Positions 37,706 to 49,591 are shown, numbered from the stretch's first letter. The stretch is DNA of 64,000 bases from a virus (IMGVR_UViG_638275558_000001:1-64000); one strand, 5' to 3'. A program made the numbers and translations. Notes: generated by a model from the sequence alone, not told the origin.

Positions 37706-37779
37706 GCGCCTGTAGCTCAACCGGAAAGAGCACCAGCCTTCTAAGCTGGTGGTTGTGGGTTCGAGTCCCACCGGGCGCT
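37706..37779 (+). tRNA. tRNA-Arg(UCU)
   Basis: Acceptor GCGCCTG/CGGGCGC, anticodon arm CCAGC-CTTCTAA-GCTGG, T-loop GTTCGAG; CCA not encoded. Confidence 0.95.
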
Positions 37780-37814
37780 CAGGTGTAATCAGAAACAAAA
37801 AAAGGGAGGGAGTC

Positions 37815-38370: not shown

Positions 38371-38778
38371 ATGAAAGAGGTCAGCGTCACCCATGTCGTC
38401 GTTTGCCCCTTCTGTGGCAAGACGGGCGAAGTCACCATTACGGCGGATGGGAGTGGTCCCCGCCTCGTGGAAATGGAGCGCATTTGCCCCCACGTAGATA
38501 CTGAATACGACGAAAGAAAGCGGGGGATTTACGTACATTTCAGTGACGGCGAAAGGGGGGACTACGTCTTCCTATACGCCCCCCTTGCGCTGTACGTCCG
38601 GGAGGGCGATCCCCATCTGATCGCCCGTGCGCTCCGCCGGCGGGGCTTTAAGGTACGGGTCGACGGGCGCCACATCATCTTCAAGACACCCGTCTACCCG
38701 TATCCGGTGGACTTGGCGCTTAGGCAGTATATGCTTAACGCCGGGCGCACGGTCTCATACAAACACGTGCATCTGTGA
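38371..38778 (+). CDS. Zn-ribbon protein, GC-rich
   Basis: CPFCG...CPH; ACCAAACAAACGGAGGTAGCC leader. Confidence 0.75.
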   Translation: MKEVSVTHVVVCPFCGKTGEVTITADGSGPRLVEMERICPHVDTEYDERKRGIYVHFSDGERGDYVFLYAPLALYVREGDPHLIARALRRRGFKVRVDGRHIIFKTPVYPYPVDLALRQYMLNAGRTVSYKHVHL

Positions 38779-38794
38779 AGATTATGTGAGGGGG

Positions 38795-38823
38795 TTGCGC
38801 GGCGCTTGGCATTTTCGTATATT
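38795..38823 (+). promoter_or_regulatory. Sigma70-type early promoter TTGCGC-N17-TATATT
   Basis: Correct spacing, followed by an AC-rich leader and GGAGG. Confidence 0.6.
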
Positions 38824-38860
38824 AGAACTGTCACCAACCAAACAAACCAAGGAGGTAGCC

Positions 38861-39085
38861 ACGAAAGCGATTGACGTTCTCAAGACATTCCCAGCCCCGG
38901 ACAGCTTCGAGGGCGTCTATTACTGTCCGGAGCATCCAGAGGTTGAAATCAAAGAAACCGTCCGTTGGACGGAGGTTCCAAACCCCAACCCCGACGCCCG
39001 CAACCCGGTCGCAGTACACCGGGTTGTGGACCGCTGGTGCCCGGTCTGCGGGAGACCGGCTGTTCTGGGAGCTCGATCCGCATGA
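38861..39085 (+). CDS. Zn-ribbon protein with an ACG (mutated or non-canonical) start
   Basis: GGAGGTAGCC-ACG-AAA parallels GGAGGTAGCC-ATG-AAA at 38371; CPEH...CPVC. Confidence 0.6.
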   Translation, partial: TKAIDVLKTFPAPDSFEGVYYCPEHPEVEIKETVRWTEVPNPNPDARNPVAVHRVVDRWCPVCGRPAVLGARSA

Positions 39086-39212
39086 CGGGTGTTTCGGCGA
39101 TATTCGCAATCTTCGCAACGCCGAAGCAAAGCTTGCCCGCCACATTTTAAAGTAATTTCCGTTTATATTTACTTATATTTACATAGGGGTTTAGAACAAA
39201 CCGGAAGATATT

Positions 39213-40106
39213 ATGAAGTGGTTTAAACGACTTACGACGCTGGAGATTTCCCTTCTTATTCCTCTCTTTATTTCCTTGAGCGTTTACTTCTCCACTCAGG
39301 GAGTCGCCAAATTTGTGGCGCTTCCTGTGTGGGTGGTGGCACTGGTAATAGCGGCTATTGACGTGGCAAAGTTCGTAAGTGTGGGTCTCCTTGTTACCAC
39401 AAGGGGATGGCTGCTCAAAACAATTCTGATTCCGGTCATCCTGTGCGCCGTCTTTGCCACTTCTTTCAGTTTTTATGCGGCACTTGTTTATTCACACGCG
39501 GAGTCGGTGTCTTCAGAGAAAGTTGAAAACATCACAGAAGCTACCATAACTCGTGAAACCGTTCAGCGTCAGATCGCGCGTTATGAGCAGCTTCTTGAGG
39601 AGGTTGACCGTTCTATTGAAAATATGAACAACACAACCACAGAGAGCATCTGGCAAGAACGTCTCCGCAAGCGAGAGTTGGAGTCGCTGGTGAATCGAAA
39701 GGAGGAGTACCTTGCCGCTATTGACTCTCTTGAAGCCGTTCTTGTAAGCAGCACGGTGGAATCGAATCAGCGTCAAAATCTATTTTTCCTCAACTATATT
39801 ACTCCCAACTTCTATTTCGTGCTTCTTACGATCATTTTCGATCCGCTTGCCGTTCTTCTTTACGCGCTGTTTGTGCGCATGCTGAAGCAAAATGCGCGTG
39901 AGGAAGATGAAAAAGAAGTGAAAGAGGAAAAAACGGGAGTGGAGGTTGTGAAACCTAATGAACCCGAAGAGCAGGATTTCGTTTCCAAGCAAGAGGAAGC
40001 GGAGCAGCTGCTGATGGATAAAGTTTTTCAAACCAAACGCTTTGCATTTGATCCAACCCGAATGCAACCCCAGAAGGTGGTTATACGGGAAAAAAGGAGG
40101 AGGTGA
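39213..40106 (+). CDS. Multi-pass membrane / coiled-coil phage protein
   Basis: Three N-terminal TM helices, a coiled coil, then IIFDPLAVLL TM. Confidence 0.8.
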   Translation: MKWFKRLTTLEISLLIPLFISLSVYFSTQGVAKFVALPVWVVALVIAAIDVAKFVSVGLLVTTRGWLLKTILIPVILCAVFATSFSFYAALVYSHAESVSSEKVENITEATITRETVQRQIARYEQLLEEVDRSIENMNNTTTESIWQERLRKRELESLVNRKEEYLAAIDSLEAVLVSSTVESNQRQNLFFLNYITPNFYFVLLTIIFDPLAVLLYALFVRMLKQNAREEDEKEVKEEKTGVEVVKPNEPEEQDFVSKQEEAEQLLMDKVFQTKRFAFDPTRMQPQKVVIREKRRR

Positions 40107-40107
40107 T

Positions 40108-40362
40108 ATGTACATTGTAAAAAAAGTCAGGATATTGAGTGAGACGGCAACGGTAATCGTCGAATATTCAGATTACAGGGCAAATGTATGGGTTGGGAAG
40201 GGAATCTCCTGTAGAGCCTTTCTCAAAAGCAAAGAGGTTAGAACAGGGGTAATCCCTTACCTGACCATTTACAAAAGATACCCCAGAAATGGAAAGCTAC
40301 TGGAAGATTTCTTAAAATCGATGGAACAACAATATGTACAACATACGCGTCAACACATATAG
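40108..40362 (+). CDS. Small-ORF array member 1 (MYIVKK)
   Basis: GGAGG RBS, GTGATATG junction. Confidence 0.75.
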   Translation: MYIVKKVRILSETATVIVEYSDYRANVWVGKGISCRAFLKSKEVRTGVIPYLTIYKRYPRNGKLLEDFLKSMEQQYVQHTRQHI

Positions 40363-40660
40363 TGTAGGGCTGCATTCGCACCAAGTTCCGATTCTCAAAG
40401 CAGCCAACGATCCTTCCATTGTTGATCACAACATGTATCTGTACATTACCGCCCGCCACCCCTTTTTGCGGCTCAAGATAGATTTCACGTTTAACGGCAA
40501 CAAAAGGGTGGCGTCATCGGCAATTATTTCCATGCACAACAGGGGGAAAGATCTGATTAAAGAATATAAGCTGTTCGATCTTGATATATACAAACCGACA
40601 ACTGCTTCGTATAAACCCTCAGATAAGACCAAGACTGTAAAGTTGATTTATAACTTTTAA
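40334..40660 (+). CDS. Small-ORF array member 2 (MYNIRV)
   Basis: Shared N-term motif; ends KLIYNF. Confidence 0.7.
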   Translation: MYNIRVNTYSVGLHSHQVPILKAANDPSIVDHNMYLYITARHPFLRLKIDFTFNGNKRVASSAIISMHNRGKDLIKEYKLFDLDIYKPTTASYKPSDKTKTVKLIYNF

Positions 40661-40683
40661 ATGATAATAGACGTTGGGTGATT

Positions 40684-40986
40684 ATGTATTGTCTTCGATA
40701 TAAAATAGCAGATATACGTTGTGCCGCCCTTAACGTACATGCGTCGAAAGTGGCACCCCCCTCCTATGTAGACATAGTGATTAAGGGGGTTTTTAAGATA
40801 AAAAAAGGGGCGCTCAGTATCGCGGTTCATCCTGATACACCTGTGGGAGACATAAGGTTTGATTGTCTCATGAAGGTTTATGGAAGCGGAGATGTGTTTG
40901 AAATACACTGTTTTAAAATCATTTTTCATTTGAATGATATTAAAAAGAGGTGTTATCGGAATCTTTTAAAGTTGGTTATAAGTTAG
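40684..40986 (+). CDS. Small-ORF array member 3 (MYCLRY)
   Basis: Shared N-term motif; ends LKLVIS. Confidence 0.7.
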   Translation: MYCLRYKIADIRCAALNVHASKVAPPSYVDIVIKGVFKIKKGALSIAVHPDTPVGDIRFDCLMKVYGSGDVFEIHCFKIIFHLNDIKKRCYRNLLKLVIS

Positions 40987-40993
40987 TGTAAAT

Positions 40994-41290
40994 ATGTGGG
41001 TTCTAAAACGGCAAGAGCAGGAAATAGGGATAAAGAGTCAGGATACGCCGATTCTGGCTCCTATTAATGCTGAGGTGGAAATACACATAGAAAAGTATAT
41101 AGGCGGATTTCCGAAGACAAAAGGCTTGTATGCAGAAGTGATCTATGCGTCAAAATATAACAAACCGGTTGTTTTTGCGCAAACCTTAAATGCGAACTAC
41201 GAAATGTACTTATGTTCTATTGGTATTTATAAAAACGTCGGAAGACAGAATAACATTATAAACATCTTAAAACTTTATGTAAACCTGTAA
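40994..41290 (+). CDS. Small-ORF array member 4 (MWVLKR)
   Basis: Shared N-term motif; ends LKLYVNL. Confidence 0.7.
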   Translation: MWVLKRQEQEIGIKSQDTPILAPINAEVEIHIEKYIGGFPKTKGLYAEVIYASKYNKPVVFAQTLNANYEMYLCSIGIYKNVGRQNNIINILKLYVNL

Positions 41291-41294
41291 CACC

Positions 41295-41582
41295 ATGTAC
41301 GTTTTAAAAATTAAAAAATACAGCTTTCATACCGGATTTTACAAAATTCCGGCAAATGGTATGGTACGGGATCCTGAGAATGGGTATATTGATCTTTGTC
41401 TCAAAACGGAACTCCCGTTATGTGCTTTCTTTGTAAACTATGAGGAAGAAGATGAACCGCGCGTTTTTGTTATAAAAGAGGCTGGAAAAGATCCTCAGGA
41501 AACTATCGTAGAATTTATTGTAAGTAAAAACTTTCCCATTAATAGGAATTTCAACATAATCAAACTGATATTTGCGCCATGA
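41295..41582 (+). CDS. Small-ORF array member 5 (MYVLKI)
   Basis: Shared N-term motif; ends IKLIFAP. Confidence 0.7.
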   Translation: MYVLKIKKYSFHTGFYKIPANGMVRDPENGYIDLCLKTELPLCAFFVNYEEEDEPRVFVIKEAGKDPQETIVEFIVSKNFPINRNFNIIKLIFAP

Positions 41583-41809
41583 TGGTTGTTGCCGGTAGAA
41601 ATTACAAGCTGGAATCCAGCGAAATGCTGATTCCCAACGTGGTGGTTACATCCAAAAACCGAATCTATAACGTTTCGATATGGGTTATAGACATCGGATA
41701 TTTCTATGCGGGAAATGAACGGGGGTATCTTGGATTAAGATGTGGGGTTGAAAAAACGTTTACTGGCTTTAAAATTAATGTCTATAAAACCACAAATCGC
41801 GGGAAGTGA
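41579..41809 (+). CDS. Small-ORF array member 6 (MMVVAG)
   Basis: ATGA-coupled to member 5. Confidence 0.65.
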   Translation: MMVVAGRNYKLESSEMLIPNVVVTSKNRIYNVSIWVIDIGYFYAGNERGYLGLRCGVEKTFTGFKINVYKTTNRGK

Positions 41810-41810
41810 T

Positions 41811-42071
41811 ATGTATATGATAAGATTGAAATGCCACGATTATCCCAATACGGTCAACAGCAAAAAAATGGTTAATTACAAAATAACTCTGAAATCAGAA
41901 CACCCATCAAACACACTTACCATTCTGATAAACTGGGTTTCAACCAATATCGAAAGATATGGCAACCATATTATGTTTCAGCGTCCCGGTTATTACCTGA
42001 GCGCTACGTTTTTGTTTAAAAAACATCTTTATTTCAAAGGCGGTTACCATCTACAAAGCTTTCGACTGTAA
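41811..42071 (+). CDS. Small-ORF array member 7 (MYMIRL)
   Basis: GTGATATGTA junction. Confidence 0.7.
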   Translation: MYMIRLKCHDYPNTVNSKKMVNYKITLKSEHPSNTLTILINWVSTNIERYGNHIMFQRPGYYLSATFLFKKHLYFKGGYHLQSFRL

Positions 42072-42086
42072 AAAATGTAAACCGAT

Positions 42087-42347
42087 ATGTATCTCATAAG
42101 ACATAGTCTCAAAAATAGGGTTGCCTATCCAGAGGATCCTTACTACAAACCACCGGTTTCCACCGGCGGGAAATGGGTTACGCATCTGGGAAAGCTTTGT
42201 AAAATAGAATTTCACGCACTGGTTTTGCAGAAGGAAATGTGGGAAGAGATAAGAAGTAGGAACAAATCACTATTCAACGATCGGATTCGCAAAGTACTTT
42301 TGTACGATACTGAAGAAAACCTATTTGCCATATATAAGATAATCTGA
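42087..42347 (+). CDS. Small-ORF array member 8 (MYLIRH)
   Basis: Shared N-term motif. Confidence 0.7.
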   Translation: MYLIRHSLKNRVAYPEDPYYKPPVSTGGKWVTHLGKLCKIEFHALVLQKEMWEEIRSRNKSLFNDRIRKVLLYDTEENLFAIYKII

Positions 42348-42580
42348 TGTTTCTGCTTAAGACAACACCGCGCAATCACAATCCGCGTCAGGTATGGTTG
42401 AAACTACCTGACCAGAGACGGGTGTTTTTTGAGGTTTCCTACAGATTCGTAGAAATTTCACATGCGACTGGAAACCGTGTTAACAGAATTCTATTACAAC
42501 TCCTGTCGGAATATCATTTTACATTTGTAAAAAAGGCGGACTATGCTGCTGGTCAAAAACAGCCACATCGATCCCAATGA
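42347..42580 (+). CDS. Small-ORF array member 9 (MFLLKT)
   Basis: TGATG-coupled; shared N-term motif. Confidence 0.7.
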   Translation: MFLLKTTPRNHNPRQVWLKLPDQRRVFFEVSYRFVEISHATGNRVNRILLQLLSEYHFTFVKKADYAAGQKQPHRSQ

Positions 42581-42761
42581 TGGTGAAATGCGGCTAAAAT
42601 ACAGCCGCGTTATGGATGTTAAAATTTATCTTGGGGCGTTTGGGAAATACCCAAACCCCCGAAGGGTGTCTTATAGTCTGGCACCCTTTGATGAACTGTT
42701 TGAGTTTGCAAGCTGGATGTCACTTTTGATGATAGAAAAGCACATAAACCGGAAAAAGTAA
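42543..42761 (+). CDS. Small-ORF array member 10 (MLLVKN)
   Basis: Variant of the shared N-term motif. Confidence 0.65.
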   Translation: MLLVKNSHIDPNDGEMRLKYSRVMDVKIYLGAFGKYPNPRRVSYSLAPFDELFEFASWMSLLMIEKHINRKK

Positions 42762-42762
42762 T

Positions 42763-42942
42763 ATGTACGTGTTTAAAGTAAGTTATTTTATGAACGGCGA
42801 GCCGATAGGCATACGTACCCTTTCAAGGTGGGTGCAGGTTGAAATTGCCTACTGGGGTAAAGAAGGTACACGTTATAAAAGAGTTACCGGTGGGAGATTT
42901 GAGGAAAATGATTACTGGTACGAAATAGAGATAAAAAAATAG
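42763..42942 (+). CDS. Small-ORF array member 11 (MYVFKV, 59 aa; not in the ORF track)
   Basis: Translated by hand; TAATATGTA junction. Confidence 0.7.
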   Translation: MYVFKVSYFMNGEPIGIRTLSRWVQVEIAYWGKEGTRYKRVTGGRFEENDYWYEIEIKK

Positions 42943-42953
42943 AATGTGTCATT

Positions 42954-43184
42954 ATGTATCTTATGAGAATGAATAAAAGTGTACCAATAACACCCATTTC
43001 CGGGAGGGGGAGTACACTGAGCGGGCATAGCGAGATTAGAATAGGAGCCGCGTGTTTTCGCGCCATGCACTGGACTTATATAATAAGTGTACACATACCG
43101 AACAATCAGTTTAGTGTTTGTTTAATGGAAAAAAGAGAATTAATAAACGTATTTTTAGACAAGCATATAAAATGTACGTATTAA
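42954..43184 (+). CDS. Small-ORF array member 12 (MYLMRM)
   Basis: Shared N-term motif. Confidence 0.7.
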   Translation: MYLMRMNKSVPITPISGRGSTLSGHSEIRIGAACFRAMHWTYIISVHIPNNQFSVCLMEKRELINVFLDKHIKCTY

Positions 43185-43396
43185 GTACAGGTGTTGATGA
43201 TCCACTATTTATGACCGGAACTTCTACACCGGGTGTGATCACTCCCAAAGAGGGTTTTTATACAACCCAGAAGTTTATTCGTGTGTGGTTTTTTGTACGC
43301 TACTACAGTGTTCCCCCAAAATCCCACAACGTTGTACATTTTACCAGCGCCAACCATTATAAACTTATAAAAAAATTCTATTATGTATACTATTAA
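43172..43396 (+). CDS. Small-ORF array member 13 (MYVLST)
   Basis: Shared N-term motif; C-half similar to member 16. Confidence 0.7.
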   Translation: MYVLSTGVDDPLFMTGTSTPGVITPKEGFYTTQKFIRVWFFVRYYSVPPKSHNVVHFTSANHYKLIKKFYYVYY

Positions 43397-43700
43397 ATTA
43401 AACAAAGGGGTTAAAAACAACGAATGTTTTGTGGTTGTCGGAAACGAAATTCTCTCCAATGACCCCATTGTAAACTATAATATATTTAGCAAACAGGATG
43501 ATCTGTTCGCATTTACAATTCAATACTGGCATAGCTTAAGAACACTGGGACCAGAAGGCACACCACTTGATCTGGAACTGACGTCTAATGCGATAAATCT
43601 TGGAAGGATTTATAACGAAGAAGATGAACCCTTCCCGGATTTCATTTTTGAAAAACTGATATATAAAGACTTTCAAGAAAGCTCTAAATTTGGGTGGTGA
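43383..43700 (+). CDS. Small-ORF array member 14 (MYTIKL)
   Basis: Shared N-term motif. Confidence 0.7.
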   Translation: MYTIKLNKGVKNNECFVVVGNEILSNDPIVNYNIFSKQDDLFAFTIQYWHSLRTLGPEGTPLDLELTSNAINLGRIYNEEDEPFPDFIFEKLIYKDFQESSKFGW

Positions 43701-43972
43701 TGTATATAACAATCAGAAAACAAATCGAATCGGTAGTATACGTAGAACCTGAATTGCTATATCATATGTTCGTAGAAATGCTGGGATACGATGTGGTAGT
43801 TTATACGCTATATGCCGCCCAATGTACCAAATATCCCGATAATAAAACGGGGGTGGTTAAGATGTTTAGTAAAAAGAAGGTGTTTTATGTGCTGAAGGTG
43901 ATAAAAGTGAGCAGGAAACCTTCTTTCTGGAAACGTCTTTTAGAATGGGTAAAAGCTATTATCAGGGGGTGA
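43700..43972 (+). CDS. Small-ORF array member 15 (MYITIR)
   Basis: TGATG-coupled. Confidence 0.7.
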   Translation: MYITIRKQIESVVYVEPELLYHMFVEMLGYDVVVYTLYAAQCTKYPDNKTGVVKMFSKKKVFYVLKVIKVSRKPSFWKRLLEWVKAIIRG

Positions 43973-43973
43973 T

Positions 43974-44141
43974 ATGTATTACCTCAAGTTGCCGGTAGCA
44001 AAGCACTCACCCTTTGATTGTATCTGGGTGTTGTTTATGATACATTACTTTCCTGTAAGTGTTTCTTTAAACACCCCGAACGCTGTATATTTTAACATCA
44101 AAAATTTTAAACTTATTAAGAGAATTTATCAAAGGTTATAA
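43974..44141 (+). CDS. Small-ORF array member 16 (MYYLKL, 55 aa; not in the ORF track)
   Basis: Translated by hand; GTGATATGTA junction. Confidence 0.7.
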   Translation: MYYLKLPVAKHSPFDCIWVLFMIHYFPVSVSLNTPNAVYFNIKNFKLIKRIYQRL

Positions 44142-44171
44142 TGTGGAACAATCAACTTTGGGGTGATCACA

Positions 44172-44456
44172 ATGATTGTACTTAAAACACCGATACTCAG
44201 AGTTACTTCGTGGTTAGATATTAGAACCGTTTTGTACGTTGAGGGGATTGGATTTGTTACCAGAATCCCCTGGATGTGGGATATTATCTTTGAAATTGTT
44301 TACGTTTATAATAAAATTGAGCGTAATGCTTGTTATTATACCAATTACATCAATTTCACTTTGAATCTTGATTCAGTAGGCGGTAAAGCGTTTGCTGTGT
44401 TGAAAGGGGTCGCACCAGAACAGGTTTTTTCCATTATTATGGTGGTTAGAAGATAG
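44172..44456 (+). CDS. Small-ORF array member 17 (MIVLKT)
   Basis: Variant of the shared N-term motif. Confidence 0.65.
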   Translation: MIVLKTPILRVTSWLDIRTVLYVEGIGFVTRIPWMWDIIFEIVYVYNKIERNACYYTNYINFTLNLDSVGGKAFAVLKGVAPEQVFSIIMVVRR

Positions 44457-44465
44457 AAAGGTGTC

Positions 44466-44576
44466 ATGTTCGTATTGAAAATGCGTGTTGTCGAAAAGAT
44501 TAGAGATCATTATGTACCTTCCGACTATAGATCTTTTATACGTCTTGGTAACTATACTTGGTTCTATCTTTTTTAT
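44466..44576 (+). pseudogene. Small-ORF array member 18 (MFVLKM), apparently interrupted by the tnpB element
   Basis: Shared N-term motif; reads in frame into GC-rich IS sequence after ...TTTTAT. Confidence 0.5.
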
Positions 44577-45709
44577 CATGACACCCATGACATACCGTTG
44601 ACACCGGCGCATAATACCTTCCCACAAACGTTTGCCGCCATGCAGACGCTCACGGTCAAATGCAAGCTGGTCCTCTCTAAGGAGCAGCGAGAAGCACTTG
44701 ACACCACCATGCGAGCGTTTGCCGCCGCGTGCAACGATGCAATCGCCGTCGGTCGAAGACTGAATACCGCGTCGAACATTCGCATCCACCGCGTCTGCTA
44801 CAGCGACCTCAGAGCAAGGCATGGTCTTACAGCCAACCTTGCCGTCCGTGCCATTGCCCGAGCAGCAGGCATTCTCAAAGTCAAGAAGCGCCAGTGCAGT
44901 ACAGTACGCCCGACAAGCATCGACTACGACGCCCGCATCTTCTCCTTCCGAGAAGCCAACAAGCGCCGTGGTCTGGAAGACGCGGCAAGGAGACTACTAC
45001 ATCGGTATCCACATTAACGTAGAGACGCCCCCACCTGAAGATGAGCACGGGTGGATTGGCGTCGACCTTGGAATCGCGAGCATTGCCACGCTGAGCGACG
45101 GCACGGTGTTCAGCGGCGACCAGATAGAGCGGGTCCGTGCTCGGTATGAAAGAACCCGCCGCTCCCTCCAGCGAAAAGGCACGAGGGGCGCAAAGCGCGT
45201 CCTGAAACGGCTCTCGGGAAGGGAGCGGCGCTTCCAGCAGGCGATCAACCACACCATCAGTCGCCGTATCGTAGACCGGGCTATCGCCGAGGGTAAGGGT
45301 GTCCGGCTCGAAGACCTCAGCGGCATTCGCAAAAGTGTGCGCGTTCGAAAATCGCAGCGCAGAAGAATCCACCGCTGGGCGTTCTATGATTTGCGCATTA
45401 AAATCGCGTACAAGTGCGCCCTTGCCGGGGTGCCCTTCGAGCTGATTGATCCCCGATATACGTCTCAGCGCTGTCCGGTCTGCGGGCATACCGAGAGGGC
45501 AAACCGCAAGAGCCAGAGCAAGTTTGTCTGCCGCTCGTGCGGATTGGAAGCGAACGCCGATGTGGTTGGCGCAATTAACATTGCACTCGGGGGCGTTGTC
45601 AACCGTCCCGAAGTAGCGCCCGATGATGTCGAAGCGGTGTTGCATGGTCAGCGCCGAACTGAGACGGAGGGCAGCTACAAGCCCACGACTGAAGTCGTGG
45701 GTAGTTGAT
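44577..45709 (+). mobile_element. IS200/IS605-family (tnpB-only) element; left boundary approximate
   Basis: Abrupt GC-rich segment; right-end hairpin CCCACGACT-GA-AGTCGTGGG followed by TAGTTGAT. Confidence 0.75.
44640..45708 (+). pseudogene. tnpB: tnpB with an internal deletion and frameshift near 44950
   Basis: MQTLTVKCKL...IFSFRE in one frame; KPTSAVV...GVDLG, RLEDL, CPVCG/CRSCG, NADVVGAINI in another. Confidence 0.85.
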
Positions 45710-45739
45710 GAATATCCATAGCCATTTATTTAATCAAAA

Positions 45740-47158
45740 ATGCTTCTCGAAAGCCGAAAAGGAGAATTCCTACAACAGGAAATTCTTCGGTTGTATAAAA
45801 CCTATGGGGATCGTCTTCTGGTAAGATTTTCCAGCGCCGAACGCGAAACCTTCAATCCCGACGCCGACTATTTCACAACGCCTATCGGTACTTACGCCTA
45901 TCCTGTCGGTGCTATCTTCCACATTTCGGAAGACGATGTGGTGATCGATCCCGACATGTACGGGGTTTCCGAAAGAAAATATATTTATTTTTTTGTGGCA
46001 AGTAAAGATGCTTCTTGGCTTAACATATCCTCTCAACATCCGGCGTTTGAAATTCCCCTTGTTTTGTACAACCAGTTCAGAAATTATGCCGATCTCTATG
46101 ACGTTTCACTGGATGATGTTTTCCGGAATCGAAACAGTATGGAAAGCTATCTTACCTACTGGTGCTTTGCCATTGCATCCCGTGTTTTCTCCGATCTTAC
46201 AGAGACACTCAAGCAGAACTTGATGGAATTGCTTCGAAAAGATCTTCCCCGTATGCGGGGATATTATCAGGAGCTTTCAAATATTTGCAGGGAATTTGAC
46301 GTCGATGTTTCAAGATTCTATCATGCACGTAACAATCCCGAAGAATGGCTCAATTTGCTGATTGCAGAACTTCTTGACCGGCTCAACAGCGGCTTCAGAC
46401 ACATGAAATCAGCCGGGGATGTAAAGCATAAGTATTTCATGTATCCTCTGATCGTTTTTATAACATTGCTTCACAACAGGTATGCACCTTATCCGAATTC
46501 CATTGAAGCGGCTTATAATATAGGAGCCAAAAAAGACCCTGTTGTTCTGACGGGTTTCCTTCGAAAGGTGGGATATGATGGAATCTGGGATCATGGCACC
46601 GGAGCCATTCACTCCAATGAACCCGCTCAGGTGGTCTGGTGGAAACCCACTGCTGCAAGGCTGGTGAACAAAATGGATAACCCTCTTTATGTTTCGCCTT
46701 CCTCCATAGGATTCGGTTATCTTGCGTTTGCCGATGAAGGGGTTGCACCCTCCAATGAAAAACAGAAAAAATATTTATGGAATCTGATTTTAAGTGGTAA
46801 AATGGATGAGTTTATTGAAATCATGGATATGATCATGTACCGTAAGTATCTTGCAGCGCTTTTCAACGCGTTTTTGAATGAAAGACGGGTGGCTCTCAAA
46901 CACGCTATCGGATTCAAGGCATTCAAGGAATATCTCAAGCAAAATGCAGAGGAAATCAGAAACTTTTTCAGAGTGAGCAGCAATGCGCCGGTGCAGCTTG
47001 TATGGGACCGGTTCAGAAAAGCATTCAGAATTTCTGAATTACTTCGAAACTACGAAGAATTGATTGACCGGCACCCTTATGAGGTGGATGATTTTGCCCA
47101 CAAGCTTCTTGGTAATTTTAACTTTTTGAAAGAACTGATTAAGCCCACCAGACTATAA
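45740..47158 (+). CDS. Hypothetical protein, paralog family B (possible ADP-ribosyltransferase-like domain)
   Basis: FNPDADYFTTPIGTYAYP and VGYDGIWDHGTGAIHSNEPAQVVWW. Confidence 0.75.
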   Translation: MLLESRKGEFLQQEILRLYKTYGDRLLVRFSSAERETFNPDADYFTTPIGTYAYPVGAIFHISEDDVVIDPDMYGVSERKYIYFFVASKDASWLNISSQHPAFEIPLVLYNQFRNYADLYDVSLDDVFRNRNSMESYLTYWCFAIASRVFSDLTETLKQNLMELLRKDLPRMRGYYQELSNICREFDVDVSRFYHARNNPEEWLNLLIAELLDRLNSGFRHMKSAGDVKHKYFMYPLIVFITLLHNRYAPYPNSIEAAYNIGAKKDPVVLTGFLRKVGYDGIWDHGTGAIHSNEPAQVVWWKPTAARLVNKMDNPLYVSPSSIGFGYLAFADEGVAPSNEKQKKYLWNLILSGKMDEFIEIMDMIMYRKYLAALFNAFLNERRVALKHAIGFKAFKEYLKQNAEEIRNFFRVSSNAPVQLVWDRFRKAFRISELLRNYEELIDRHPYEVDDFAHKLLGNFNFLKELIKPTRL

Positions 47159-47210
47159 AACGCAAAATAATTAAAAAAATGAAAGTTAATTAAAATAAAA
47201 GGAGGTCAAA

Positions 47211-47804: not shown

Positions 47805-49211
47805 ATGCTTGATCAGCTTCTTTCTCTTTCCGGGCTTTACTTTGATCAACAGCTTTTTGCGGGTTCACCGGGAGAGTTGTTTTTGCGGTTGGTGGCGGAA
47901 GCACTCGATGAAGCGGAGTTCAATGTAAGGAGTCTGCAGAACCGAAGCTATCCGCTGACTGTAGAGAATACTGATGATCTGCTGAGACTGGCACACCTGA
48001 ACGGTGTAAGTATTACCCCCTACGTTCAGGGAATTGTCAAAGCAGAACTTCTTGTTACTTTCCCCATTTCGGTTACCACATCTGTTCCTGACTTGACAAC
48101 ACATGCACCGGAAATTCTCTACATGGATATTCTTGCCGATACGGATTATTTCTATCTGGATTATACCGATTTCCGCCAGACCGATACCCGTATCATTACC
48201 ACCAGCACCAATCTTATCTACTCAAGAGACGTAGTCTTTCGTCATGGTAGGGTTGAGCGGAGAAGCTATCCGGTAAGTCAGACGATCCCCTTCATGATGT
48301 TAGAACTTGAGGAAGATGTGGTGGATGTTAAGAACGTTTTCGTGGAATACCCTGATGGAAGGCTGGTCAAGTTTTACCGCTCACGTAATCTTCATGAAAA
48401 TCTGGTGGTTGAAAATGCGGTAATTTACAACACCCGCCACATTTACGACGTGGTGTTTTCCTCGGGGAGAGTGCATTTGCTTTTCGGTAGAAAGATTTCT
48501 CTGGAAGACCCGATTTCACATACCGGCTATACTTTTCCCGCCGGAAGCACCATATATGTCGACACGGTTGCAATCGATCCGACTACCCTGAACAGCTTCA
48601 TTCCGGAACTTGAAGCAGATATCAAAACCGTTAAGATCAACAACCGTATTGGGGCAACCCCTCAGATTCAGGTGCTCACCGAAGGTGGATACACTTCCCG
48701 TCTTAAAGACATCGAATATCTCAAACGGGAACTGCTTGTCGCTCTTCAGAAAGACGAACTGGAAAGAGAAATCGCAAAATATTTCGATAAATACAGATTC
48801 GTTCGAGAAGATGATATTGTCTATGTGGAAGGAGCCATATACCGCAACGGTAGATTCACCTTCCACGAAGCCGATCGATTCTATATGCAGAAAGTGGTTT
48901 CCACCTACAACCGCAACATGATCGTCAGGAAAATTCCGATCACCCCCCTCAAGATCATCATTCGCGCTTCCAACATTCTGAACCCCGGAGAACTGATCAC
49001 TTTCGTAAAAGATTATATCAGAAAACTTCCGATCGGTGGAACGTGGATCACAAATGAACTTGTGGGGTTAATAAAAGAAAAATTCAATGTCGTATGTGTG
49101 CTGGAAATTTATTTTGGAGAAACTTATGCCCGAAAGGTTTCGGAAGATATTATCATCTACGACGGCGTACTCGACGTTGAAAGTGTAGAAGTCAAACCCG
49201 TACTGGTTTGA
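47805..49211 (+). CDS. Baseplate wedge subunit, gp6/J-like
   Basis: LFLRLVAEALDEAEFNV...SYPLTV...LLRLAHLNG is gp6-like. Confidence 0.7.
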   Translation: MLDQLLSLSGLYFDQQLFAGSPGELFLRLVAEALDEAEFNVRSLQNRSYPLTVENTDDLLRLAHLNGVSITPYVQGIVKAELLVTFPISVTTSVPDLTTHAPEILYMDILADTDYFYLDYTDFRQTDTRIITTSTNLIYSRDVVFRHGRVERRSYPVSQTIPFMMLELEEDVVDVKNVFVEYPDGRLVKFYRSRNLHENLVVENAVIYNTRHIYDVVFSSGRVHLLFGRKISLEDPISHTGYTFPAGSTIYVDTVAIDPTTLNSFIPELEADIKTVKINNRIGATPQIQVLTEGGYTSRLKDIEYLKRELLVALQKDELEREIAKYFDKYRFVREDDIVYVEGAIYRNGRFTFHEADRFYMQKVVSTYNRNMIVRKIPITPLKIIIRASNILNPGELITFVKDYIRKLPIGGTWITNELVGLIKEKFNVVCVLEIYFGETYARKVSEDIIIYDGVLDVESVEVKPVLV

Positions 49212-49591
49212 TGGGGCGCTATGCAAAAACCAAGGGAAGGAAATTTCAGAACTTTGTAAAATCGCTGCTTGAATCCACCTTCAAAAATTGGAGCTTCAAG
49301 ACAGCAATCATGGGCGAATCAGGTTCAGATGTCAAGATATTTCCGGAGCAGATTTTTTCGGTTGAAGTAAAACACCACAAAAACGGATTGATCAGAAAGG
49401 ATGATATGCCTTCTGAAACCGTACTCAAGCAAGCACGCGAGCTTATCCGTAAGGAAAACAGTCATTTCTGTTTGATCGTTTTGAAGGAGAATTACAAAAC
49501 CCCACAATATTTTGTGCTTTATCGAAACGGAAAGCTGAGAAAGCTGGAAGATATATCGGAGCTTAAGGAAATTGTAAAAAGATATAAATGA
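49211..49591 (+). CDS. Holliday-junction resolvase-like PD-(D/E)xK nuclease
   Basis: KTKGRKFQ, MGESGSDV, FSVEVK. Confidence 0.75.
   Translation: MGRYAKTKGRKFQNFVKSLLESTFKNWSFKTAIMGESGSDVKIFPEQIFSVEVKHHKNGLIRKDDMPSETVLKQARELIRKENSHFCLIVLKENYKTPQYFVLYRNGKLRKLEDISELKEIVKRYK

Follow-up and report, generated by a model that had tools for sequence, protein, structure and literature searches.

A run of 18 small phage genes with a constant N-terminal pentapeptide and variable bodies, a possible accessory cassette array

The DNA analysed here, referred to as the window, corresponds to the opening 64 kb of a virus record of 129,908 bp, rated complete by CheckV (IMGVR_UViG_638275558_000001:1-64000), and it contains a plus-strand run of 18 small genes (m1 to m18) whose products begin with the same kind of pentapeptide and continue into unrelated bodies. 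We report that this N-terminal tag is selected at the amino-acid level, that it is not a general start preference of the phage and that whole genes of the array are gained and lost among relatives, with two of the joints lying within the conserved starts. As a tentative interpretation, we propose that the locus might be an accessory cassette array in which each small protein carries a constant terminal beta-strand module.

An N-terminal tag selected at the amino-acid level

The 18 open reading frames (ORFs) are co-oriented, start with ATG and tile positions 40108-44579, separated by spacers of 0-23 nt or joined by short overlaps (Table 1). Their number, strand, positions and opening residues agree throughout with a preliminary description made from the sequence alone; 17 members are intact and encode 55-108 residues, and the last is cut by an insertion sequence (IS), without which it comprises 40 codons and ends just ahead of the next gene. 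ATG-started ORFs of at least 50 codons cover 95% of the plus strand of the array, against 9.9% (standard deviation 6.2, maximum 38.6%) in 1000 first-order Markov randomisations, and the reading frames are therefore not accidents of AT-rich DNA. Most products are basic: 15 of the 18 have an isoelectric point (pI) above 9, another has one of exactly 9.0, and the acidic members are m5 and m14.

In its strict form, the signature M[YFW].[ILVMF][KR] heads 13 of the 18 members, and the five other starts are near misses (MMVVA, MLLVK, MYVLS, MYITI and MIVLK). Across the six frames of the 129,908-bp record, strict sites followed by at least 50 open codons number 19, of which 13 fall within the array (binomial p=2e-15), and a comparison with the other small genes of the genome, which the preliminary description had proposed, found the strict tag in none of the 33 genes of up to 130 residues outside the array (crude call of 147 genes). 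No large protein bears the tag, whether in the six-frame list of sites or in the gene call. A scan for N-terminal patterns in a reduced alphabet likewise placed 12 of its 14 genome-wide matches inside 4.5 kb at the array. The best clusters found elsewhere (7 of 30 in the rest of the genome, 10 of 27 in bases 1-50000 of T4 and 8 of 17 in bases 1-50000 of the Microcystis phage Mel-JY01) all concern very common residue classes, and bases 1-50000 of T4 are rich in small early genes.

The distribution of information among codon positions points to the protein as the object of selection. The second position is T in 14 of the 18 genes at codon 3 and in 17 at codon 4, while the first and third positions of both codons are near random (about 0.05-0.21 bit over the 18 starts); residue 4 is specified by 13 different codons, tyrosine by TAT (seven times) or TAC (five times), and the basic residue by AAA, AAG, AGA, CGC or CGA. 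Selection has therefore acted on hydrophobic and basic residues and not on a nucleotide motif. The tag stands at the extreme N-terminus, without insertions or deletions between the initial methionine and the motif in any of the 18 members, and conservation does not extend beyond residue 5. Among 83 other genes tested, none presents the pattern, and their second position favours K, N or S instead; the tag is thus specific to the array and not a habit of translation starts in this phage.

Unrelated bodies and a second motif at the C-terminus

Beyond the tag, a second motif joins part of the array. K-L-[IVY], which had been noticed near the C-terminus of several members, occurs within the last 15 residues of seven of the 17 intact proteins, and these seven are all its occurrences in the array, compared with a mean of 0.39 and a maximum of 4 in 5000 shuffles. 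Direct reading of the sequence reveals that the codons for K and L in this motif vary between members. The N-terminal Y-h-L-K and the C-terminal K-L-h-Y (h, hydrophobic) are mirror images of each other codon by codon, not nucleotide palindromes, as would be expected from antiparallel pairing between the two termini, and crude strand propensity (Chou-Fasman values) is high at both ends of the proteins.

The bodies themselves share nothing family-wide. A Gibbs motif search with the first five residues removed found no common motif (z=0.2 and -1.6 against 30 shuffles each), phmmer searches with the same truncation against the other six-frame ORFs detected no similarity extending through the family, and profile comparison with hhalign, the all-against-all check envisaged earlier, scored 136 pairs of members no higher than 340 pairs of a member and another small protein (means 10.06 and 9.92, p=0.43). 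The initial portrayal of a constant tag on a variable body is therefore accurate. The suspected paralogy of m13 and m16 is also borne out: they form the sole marginal pair in all-against-all blastp (E=4.8e-4), and their DNA aligns in frame at 64% over 112 nt (blastn, E=1e-7); at least one pair thus arose through duplication. Shorter traces consist of an in-frame match of 18 out of 20 nt linking m5 and m14 and of a 31-nt repeat family common to the 3' ends of m4, m13 and m16. When the bodies are examined as a putative single family, only m13 and m16 are alike, and the second motif unites seven of the 17. Frameshifted paralogs were also sought with tblastx and blastn, and none was found.

Gain and loss of whole cassettes among relatives

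Contigs from four sequencing runs (X1, X3, X5 and X14, the last from a hot spring) were compared with the reference over positions 39200-47200. Divergence is 1-3% in the flanks and over most of the array and reaches 12-14% in the region of m15 to m17 in X3 and X5. X14 covers m1, m2, m4 to m10, m13 and m14 as the reference does, and lacks three segments: m3 (joint 40658->40945, with the stop codon of m2 kept), m11 together with m12 (joint 42762->43172, running from start to start, with eight ambiguous letters that correspond to the first eight shared by m11 and m13) and everything from codon 33 of m15 through the end of the IS. X5 has an insertion of 1537 nt placed exactly behind codon 5 of m12, and the region of m15 to m18 is replaced or divergent in all four runs. 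Whole cassettes are thus gained and lost, the comparison with related hot-spring phage contigs having been proposed in the preliminary description, and two of the joints lie within the conserved starts. Among the differences listed (728 further ones exist), those in the array genes comprise 19 nonsynonymous and five synonymous changes, against three and six in the gene immediately upstream, which codes for a 297-residue protein (p=0.033). In one related contig m4 is 92% and m5 83% identical to the reference, and the upstream protein 75%.

Several smaller events were observed in the same contigs. In X1, 33 nt of the m7 start (41803-41835, including the ribosome-binding site, the ATG and eight codons) are repeated around a 33-nt GC-rich insert, an in-frame addition of 66 nt that looks like a footprint or a small insertion. 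The upstream gene is mosaic: about 540-576 nt in its 5' half are passed over or exchanged in contigs of X1 and X3, and orthologs of its product form groups, at 97-100% and at about 75% identity. The m12 ortholog P0015 ends in a different C-terminus, which corresponds to an alternative frame ahead of m13, so that the overlap of m12 and m13 tolerates a frameshift.

Searches for homologs

As anticipated in the preliminary description, the array corresponds to no described family, and the databases searched support the absence of homologs outside the phage lineage. For the 17 intact members, PHROGs returned nothing below E=1e-3, Pfam matched none, and the best NCBIfam hit (E=0.064) was not significant; neither Pfam nor NCBIfam revealed toxin or immunity families among them. 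The best result of a sequence search of the PDB with an m5 profile had E=0.95. Searches of 5.8e9 and 1.84e9 proteins yielded only orthologs from the lineage, all of which retain the tag, with substitutions that are conservative (L4F, for instance). In particular, m2 matched only a 94% identical protein and a 29-residue fragment among the 1.84e9 representatives, and queries with m5 and then with a 17-member profile recovered only orthologs at about 65-99% identity. Four m5 orthologs at 67-89% identity are each 95 residues long and free of indels, and this constancy of length down to 67% identity indicates that the genes are coding. A further protein, P0028, is a 56% relative carried on a contig. 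No match was obtained for m14 or m4 by tblastn against 50,697 phage records, and scans of viral and metagenome contig collections turned up no related loci.

Two further assignments were considered and rejected. Precursors of ribosomally synthesised and post-translationally modified peptides would have a leader of five residues and bodies of 50-100, and no modifying enzyme was seen around the array (Pfam for the nearest flanking ORFs, PHROGs only for the other neighbours). The C-terminal K-L-I presumably resembles the C-terminal domain of type IX secretion substrates, for which NCBIfam gave no match. Inspection of the member N-termini by eye found no long hydrophobic stretch of the signal-peptide kind.

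The phage, its probable host and the surroundings of the array

The record encodes a T4-type portal (Pfam PF07230, E=4e-56), a tail-sheath C-terminal domain (Pfam) and a gp21-type (S77) prohead protease (PF03420, G000 104862-105287, minus strand; 56.2 bits against a cut-off of 27). The portal is 33% identical to that of the nearest cultured phage, Mel-JY01, and 31% identical to those of Flavobacterium phages. Megablast against phage records produced no match, and near-identical DNA is present in metagenome contigs from compost, manure, landfill, soil and hot springs (20 rows from 12 studies). The one cultured phage of this kind in the literature, Rhodothermus phage RM378, is presented in PMC4360716 as a Far-T4 outlier without clear modules, and our record resembles that description. 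Of the T4 regulators sought, RegA (PF01818) was not found and T4 gp55 gave no match; TATAAATA occurs six times against 3.4 expected.

The host is most likely a member of the Rhodothermales, because the closest copies of the IS that interrupts m18, at 93-99% identity, sit in genomes of that order. These are two 3.4-Mb genomes (G115 and G116) that share their order with a Rhodothermaceae metagenome-assembled genome, whose own copy of the IS is 77% identical at the protein level. A portal search of 285 genomes from the presumed host order gave no match. The IS has a GC content of about 60%, compared with about 38% in the array; it splits off the last two codons of m18 and is missing from contigs of X1, X3 and X5 (joint 44579->45725). 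The phage copy is about 95 nt shorter than those in G115 and G116, with a 9-nt overlap at the deletion, which puts tnpB out of frame near 44952-44960. Read depth on the IS is several-fold above that of its flanks, and the element must therefore also reside in other, more abundant genomes of those samples.

Upstream of the array, the TGA stop codon of the 297-residue protein gene sits within the AGGAGGTGAT ribosome-binding site of m1. Judged by eye, this protein has several hydrophobic helices and a coiled-coil middle, giving it a membrane or coiled-coil look. A tRNA-Arg gene (anticodon TCT) lies 2.3 kb before the array; it reads AGA, the arginine codon at residue 5 in three members, which would be rare in a GC-rich host. 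An island of about 50% GC among AT-rich genes, with overlapping ORFs on both strands, one of them with a C-x-x-C pair close to the end, could be a further relic of foreign DNA. Downstream, a RusA-like Holliday-junction resolvase (phrog_244, E=4e-13) belongs to the same run of plus-strand genes, and it was the sole PHROGs match among 13 neighbours.

Table 1. Members of the array and other features of the window (positions counted from the first letter of the window)
Feature	Coordinates	Strand	Product (aa)	First residues	Remarks
m1	40108-40362	+	84	MYIVK	ATG 1 nt past the stop of the upstream gene
m2	40334-40660	+	108	MYNIR	C-terminal KLIYNF
m3	40684-40986	+	100	MYCLR	C-terminal KLVIS; missing from X14
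m4	40994-41290	+	98	MWVLK	C-terminal KLYVNL; ortholog P0008 at 92%
m5	41295-41582	+	95	MYVLK	Acidic, pI 5.8; C-terminal KLIFAP
m6	41579-41809	+	76	MMVVA	Relaxed tag; overlaps m5 by 4 nt
m7	41811-42071	+	86	MYMIR	Ortholog P0014
m8	42087-42347	+	86	MYLIR	Orthologs P0013, P0016
m9	42347-42580	+	77	MFLLK	Ortholog P0007
m10	42543-42761	+	72	MLLVK	Relaxed tag
m11	42763-42942	+	59	MYVFK	Missing with m12 in X14
m12	42954-43184	+	76	MYLMR	Orthologs P0010, P0015
m13	43172-43396	+	74	MYVLS	Relaxed tag; m16 paralog; C-terminal KLIKKFY
m14	43383-43700	+	105	MYTIK	Acidic, pI 4.5; KLIYKD near C-terminus
m15	43700-43972	+	90	MYITI	Relaxed tag
m16	43974-44141	+	55	MYYLK	m13 paralog; C-terminal KLIKRIY
m17	44172-44456	+	94	MIVLK	Relaxed tag
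m18	44466-44579	+		MFVLK	First 38 codons; cut by the IS; last 2 codons and stop at 45725-45733
Upstream gene	39213-40106	+	297		Translationally coupled to m1
IS200/IS605-type element	44580-45724	+			1145 nt; tnpB only; Pfam PF07282, PF01385
tRNA-Arg	37706-37780				Anticodon TCT
GC island	38600-39150				About 50% GC
RusA-like resolvase	49211-49591	+			phrog_244

A proposed cassette array with a constant terminal strand

The interpretation towards which we lean, with some reserve, is that the locus would be a strain-variable accessory array, or hyperplastic region, of a Far-T4-type myovirus infecting Rhodothermales. In each cassette, a ribosome-binding site and an ATG would lead into a module of four codons (aromatic, hydrophobic, hydrophobic, Lys/Arg), followed by a small ORF unrelated to the others. 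The pentapeptide might form a constant terminal beta-strand, which in at least seven members could pair in antiparallel fashion with a C-terminal strand of the form K-L-hydrophobic-(Y/I/F/V/K), and the resulting two-strand clasp may either close off a small heat-stable fold whose middle varies freely or offer a constant docking edge. The products would then be non-essential proteins acting on the host through their variable bodies, in takeover or counter-defence. The tag holds its place at the N-terminus of all 18 proteins and has survived longer than any other position, and it must therefore do something specific.

A number of observations weigh against this proposal. The clasp is something we infer, the C-terminal motif is missing from ten of the 17 intact proteins, and if the strand had a purely structural role, one would not expect it to survive longer than all other positions of the core. 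The lack of family-wide similarity among the bodies leaves the common descent of all 18 unproven. Only two of about ten joints in the array fall in the start module, the rest lying inside genes or in replacements, and the ESM Atlas model of m14 has a pLDDT of 0.36, with all scores below 0.9. The excess of nonsynonymous changes is but a weak hint of fast evolution, and we do not claim that the genes evolve unusually fast, because a further 728 differences stand outside these counts and the upstream protein is itself only 75% identical.

At the level of the locus, the array behaves like the T4-type hyperplastic regions, in which ORFans are described as being shuffled via promoter-early stem-loop (PeSL) repeats (PMC2839356; see also PMC4122927): in both, a run of small ORFans differs between near-identical genomes, with indels that in the array place two of about ten joints at the repeated motif. 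The repeated units are not of the same kind, the PeSL being an intergenic element of about 100 bp with a strong sigma-70-type promoter and a stem-loop terminator, whereas the repeat of the array is coding, about 15-25 nt long and selected as protein. No PeSL-type intergenic unit of about 100 bp was found in the array, where genes abut or overlap and no long intergenic repeat family was found. Polymorphic toxin and orphan-cassette arrays, as outlined in PMC3482391, also combine a constant N-terminal part with a variable remainder in recombining stand-alone cassettes; in those systems, however, what stays constant is a long region for trafficking or made of repeats, and the cassettes are toxin domains paired with immunity genes, families of which neither kind was detected among the 17 array members scanned.

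Alternative roles for the pentapeptide

An alternative that deserves discussion, even if we consider it rather unlikely, is that the pentapeptide acts like the address tag of phage internal proteins (IPs), docking small, mostly basic proteins onto the prohead core; a polymorphic set of them would in this way enter the capsid and be injected along with the DNA, for instance as counter-defence. Polymorphic T-even IP loci with a capsid targeting sequence (CTS) were reportedly described by Repoila and co-workers in 1994. Such loci resemble the array in that they encode unrelated small basic proteins with only a short N-terminal peptide in common, vary between relatives and accompany a T4-type head machinery that includes an S77 protease. 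The portal and the PF03420 protease of the present phage, the prevalence of basic members, the anchored tag on unrelated bodies and a polymorphic locus with joints in conserved 5' ends are all consistent with this possibility, and there is a loose positional parallel between T4 ipI, which lies just past a tRNA cluster, and the tRNA-Arg gene upstream of the array. According to PMC3012670 and PMC9026906, T-even IPs are diverse defence proteins that share only the CTS.

The peptide itself fits less well. Five residues compare with 10-19 for the T4 CTS (PMC9026906), and 18 genes are far above the IPI, IPII and IPIII named there for T4. There is no likeness to the N-terminus of T4 IPI (NC_000866), which begins MKTFKEF and whose propeptide ends in ..ITE, and an [LI]xE site within the first 25 residues is present in a single member and missing from the other 17, with the caveat that this is the T4 site and that the protease of this phage may differ in specificity. 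Low codon-usage scores would be odd for abundant virion proteins, no large protein bears the tag, and, unlike T-even IP loci, the array places 18 genes in one operon-like run. The T4 IP analogy drawn in the preliminary description can therefore be retained for the behaviour of the locus (small basic proteins, protease and polymorphism) and is not supported as regards likeness to the CTS and the [LI]xE site. It may also be postulated, with considerable doubt, that M-aromatic-hydrophobic-hydrophobic-Lys/Arg is an address label at a free N-terminus, read by a single phage or host partner for which the prohead core would be the most interesting candidate, and that the same 15 nt double as the joint at which cassettes are captured.

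The pentapeptide could instead govern turnover or expression, which seems distinctly unlikely. The N-terminal residues would here set half-life or the yield of early elongation, with the methionine retained before a bulky residue, and the hydrophobic-hydrophobic-basic pattern would be recognised by a protease, as a signal of the ClpX N-motif kind; N-terminal ClpX motifs are said to have been reported by Flynn and co-workers in 2003. Strict anchoring, with no indel before the motif, and protein-level selection would suit such a role, and position 7 is polar in 17 of the 18 members, so that the hydrophobic patch is short and exposed. Against it stand the absence of the pattern from the 83 other genes and their different preference at position 2, as well as mRNA folding around the start (-20 to +20), which at -3.18 kcal/mol in the array and -2.71 kcal/mol in other genes does not differ (p=0.34). 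The ClpX motifs documented in PMC3983244 are C-terminal ones.

Still less probable is a recombination handle devoid of any protein role, in which the ribosome-binding site and the first 15 nt would persist simply through cassette exchange or conversion. Two clean cassette indels do have their joints in the start module, families of start sequences of 15-18 nt (D2, D4, D5 and D18) are 87-93% identical between particular members, and shuffling mediated by PeSL is documented (PMC2839356). The concentration of information at second codon positions, with first and third positions near random, argues instead for selection on residues; the other joints lie elsewhere, the intergenic repeat of about 100 bp is missing, and neither promoters (28 against 20.4 expected, standard deviation 4.6) nor terminators (15 against 10.6, standard deviation 3.6) are in clear excess. 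Finally, chance, or accidental ORFs in non-coding AT-rich DNA, would agree with codon-usage scores per residue of about half those of other small genes and with the lack of homologs outside the lineage, yet it is rendered negligible by the tag enrichment, the ORF cover and the full-length orthologs down to 67% identity.

Implications

The hyperplastic regions of phages are a source of new genes, many of them involved in counter-defence, and their construction is poorly understood beyond coliphages. The array described here provides a clean case, in which a fixed, protein-selected start module is combined with free bodies and in which whole cassettes are naturally gained and lost at the module. 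Should the module be no more than the opening strand of a minimal fold, the locus would represent an unusually clear instance of paralogs that have drifted apart with their termini kept. If it instead signals for targeting, docking or stability, it would supply a five-residue, heat-proof tag with which proteins could be loaded or controlled in thermophilic hosts and capsids, and the 18 bodies would become candidate effectors against Rhodothermales defences. Were the address-label reading true, no phage protein-targeting signal shorter than the pentapeptide would be known, and the T-even IP principle would have been reinvented independently by a thermophilic Far-T4 phage, which would pack and inject a strain-variable set of small proteins, up to 18 or more in number.

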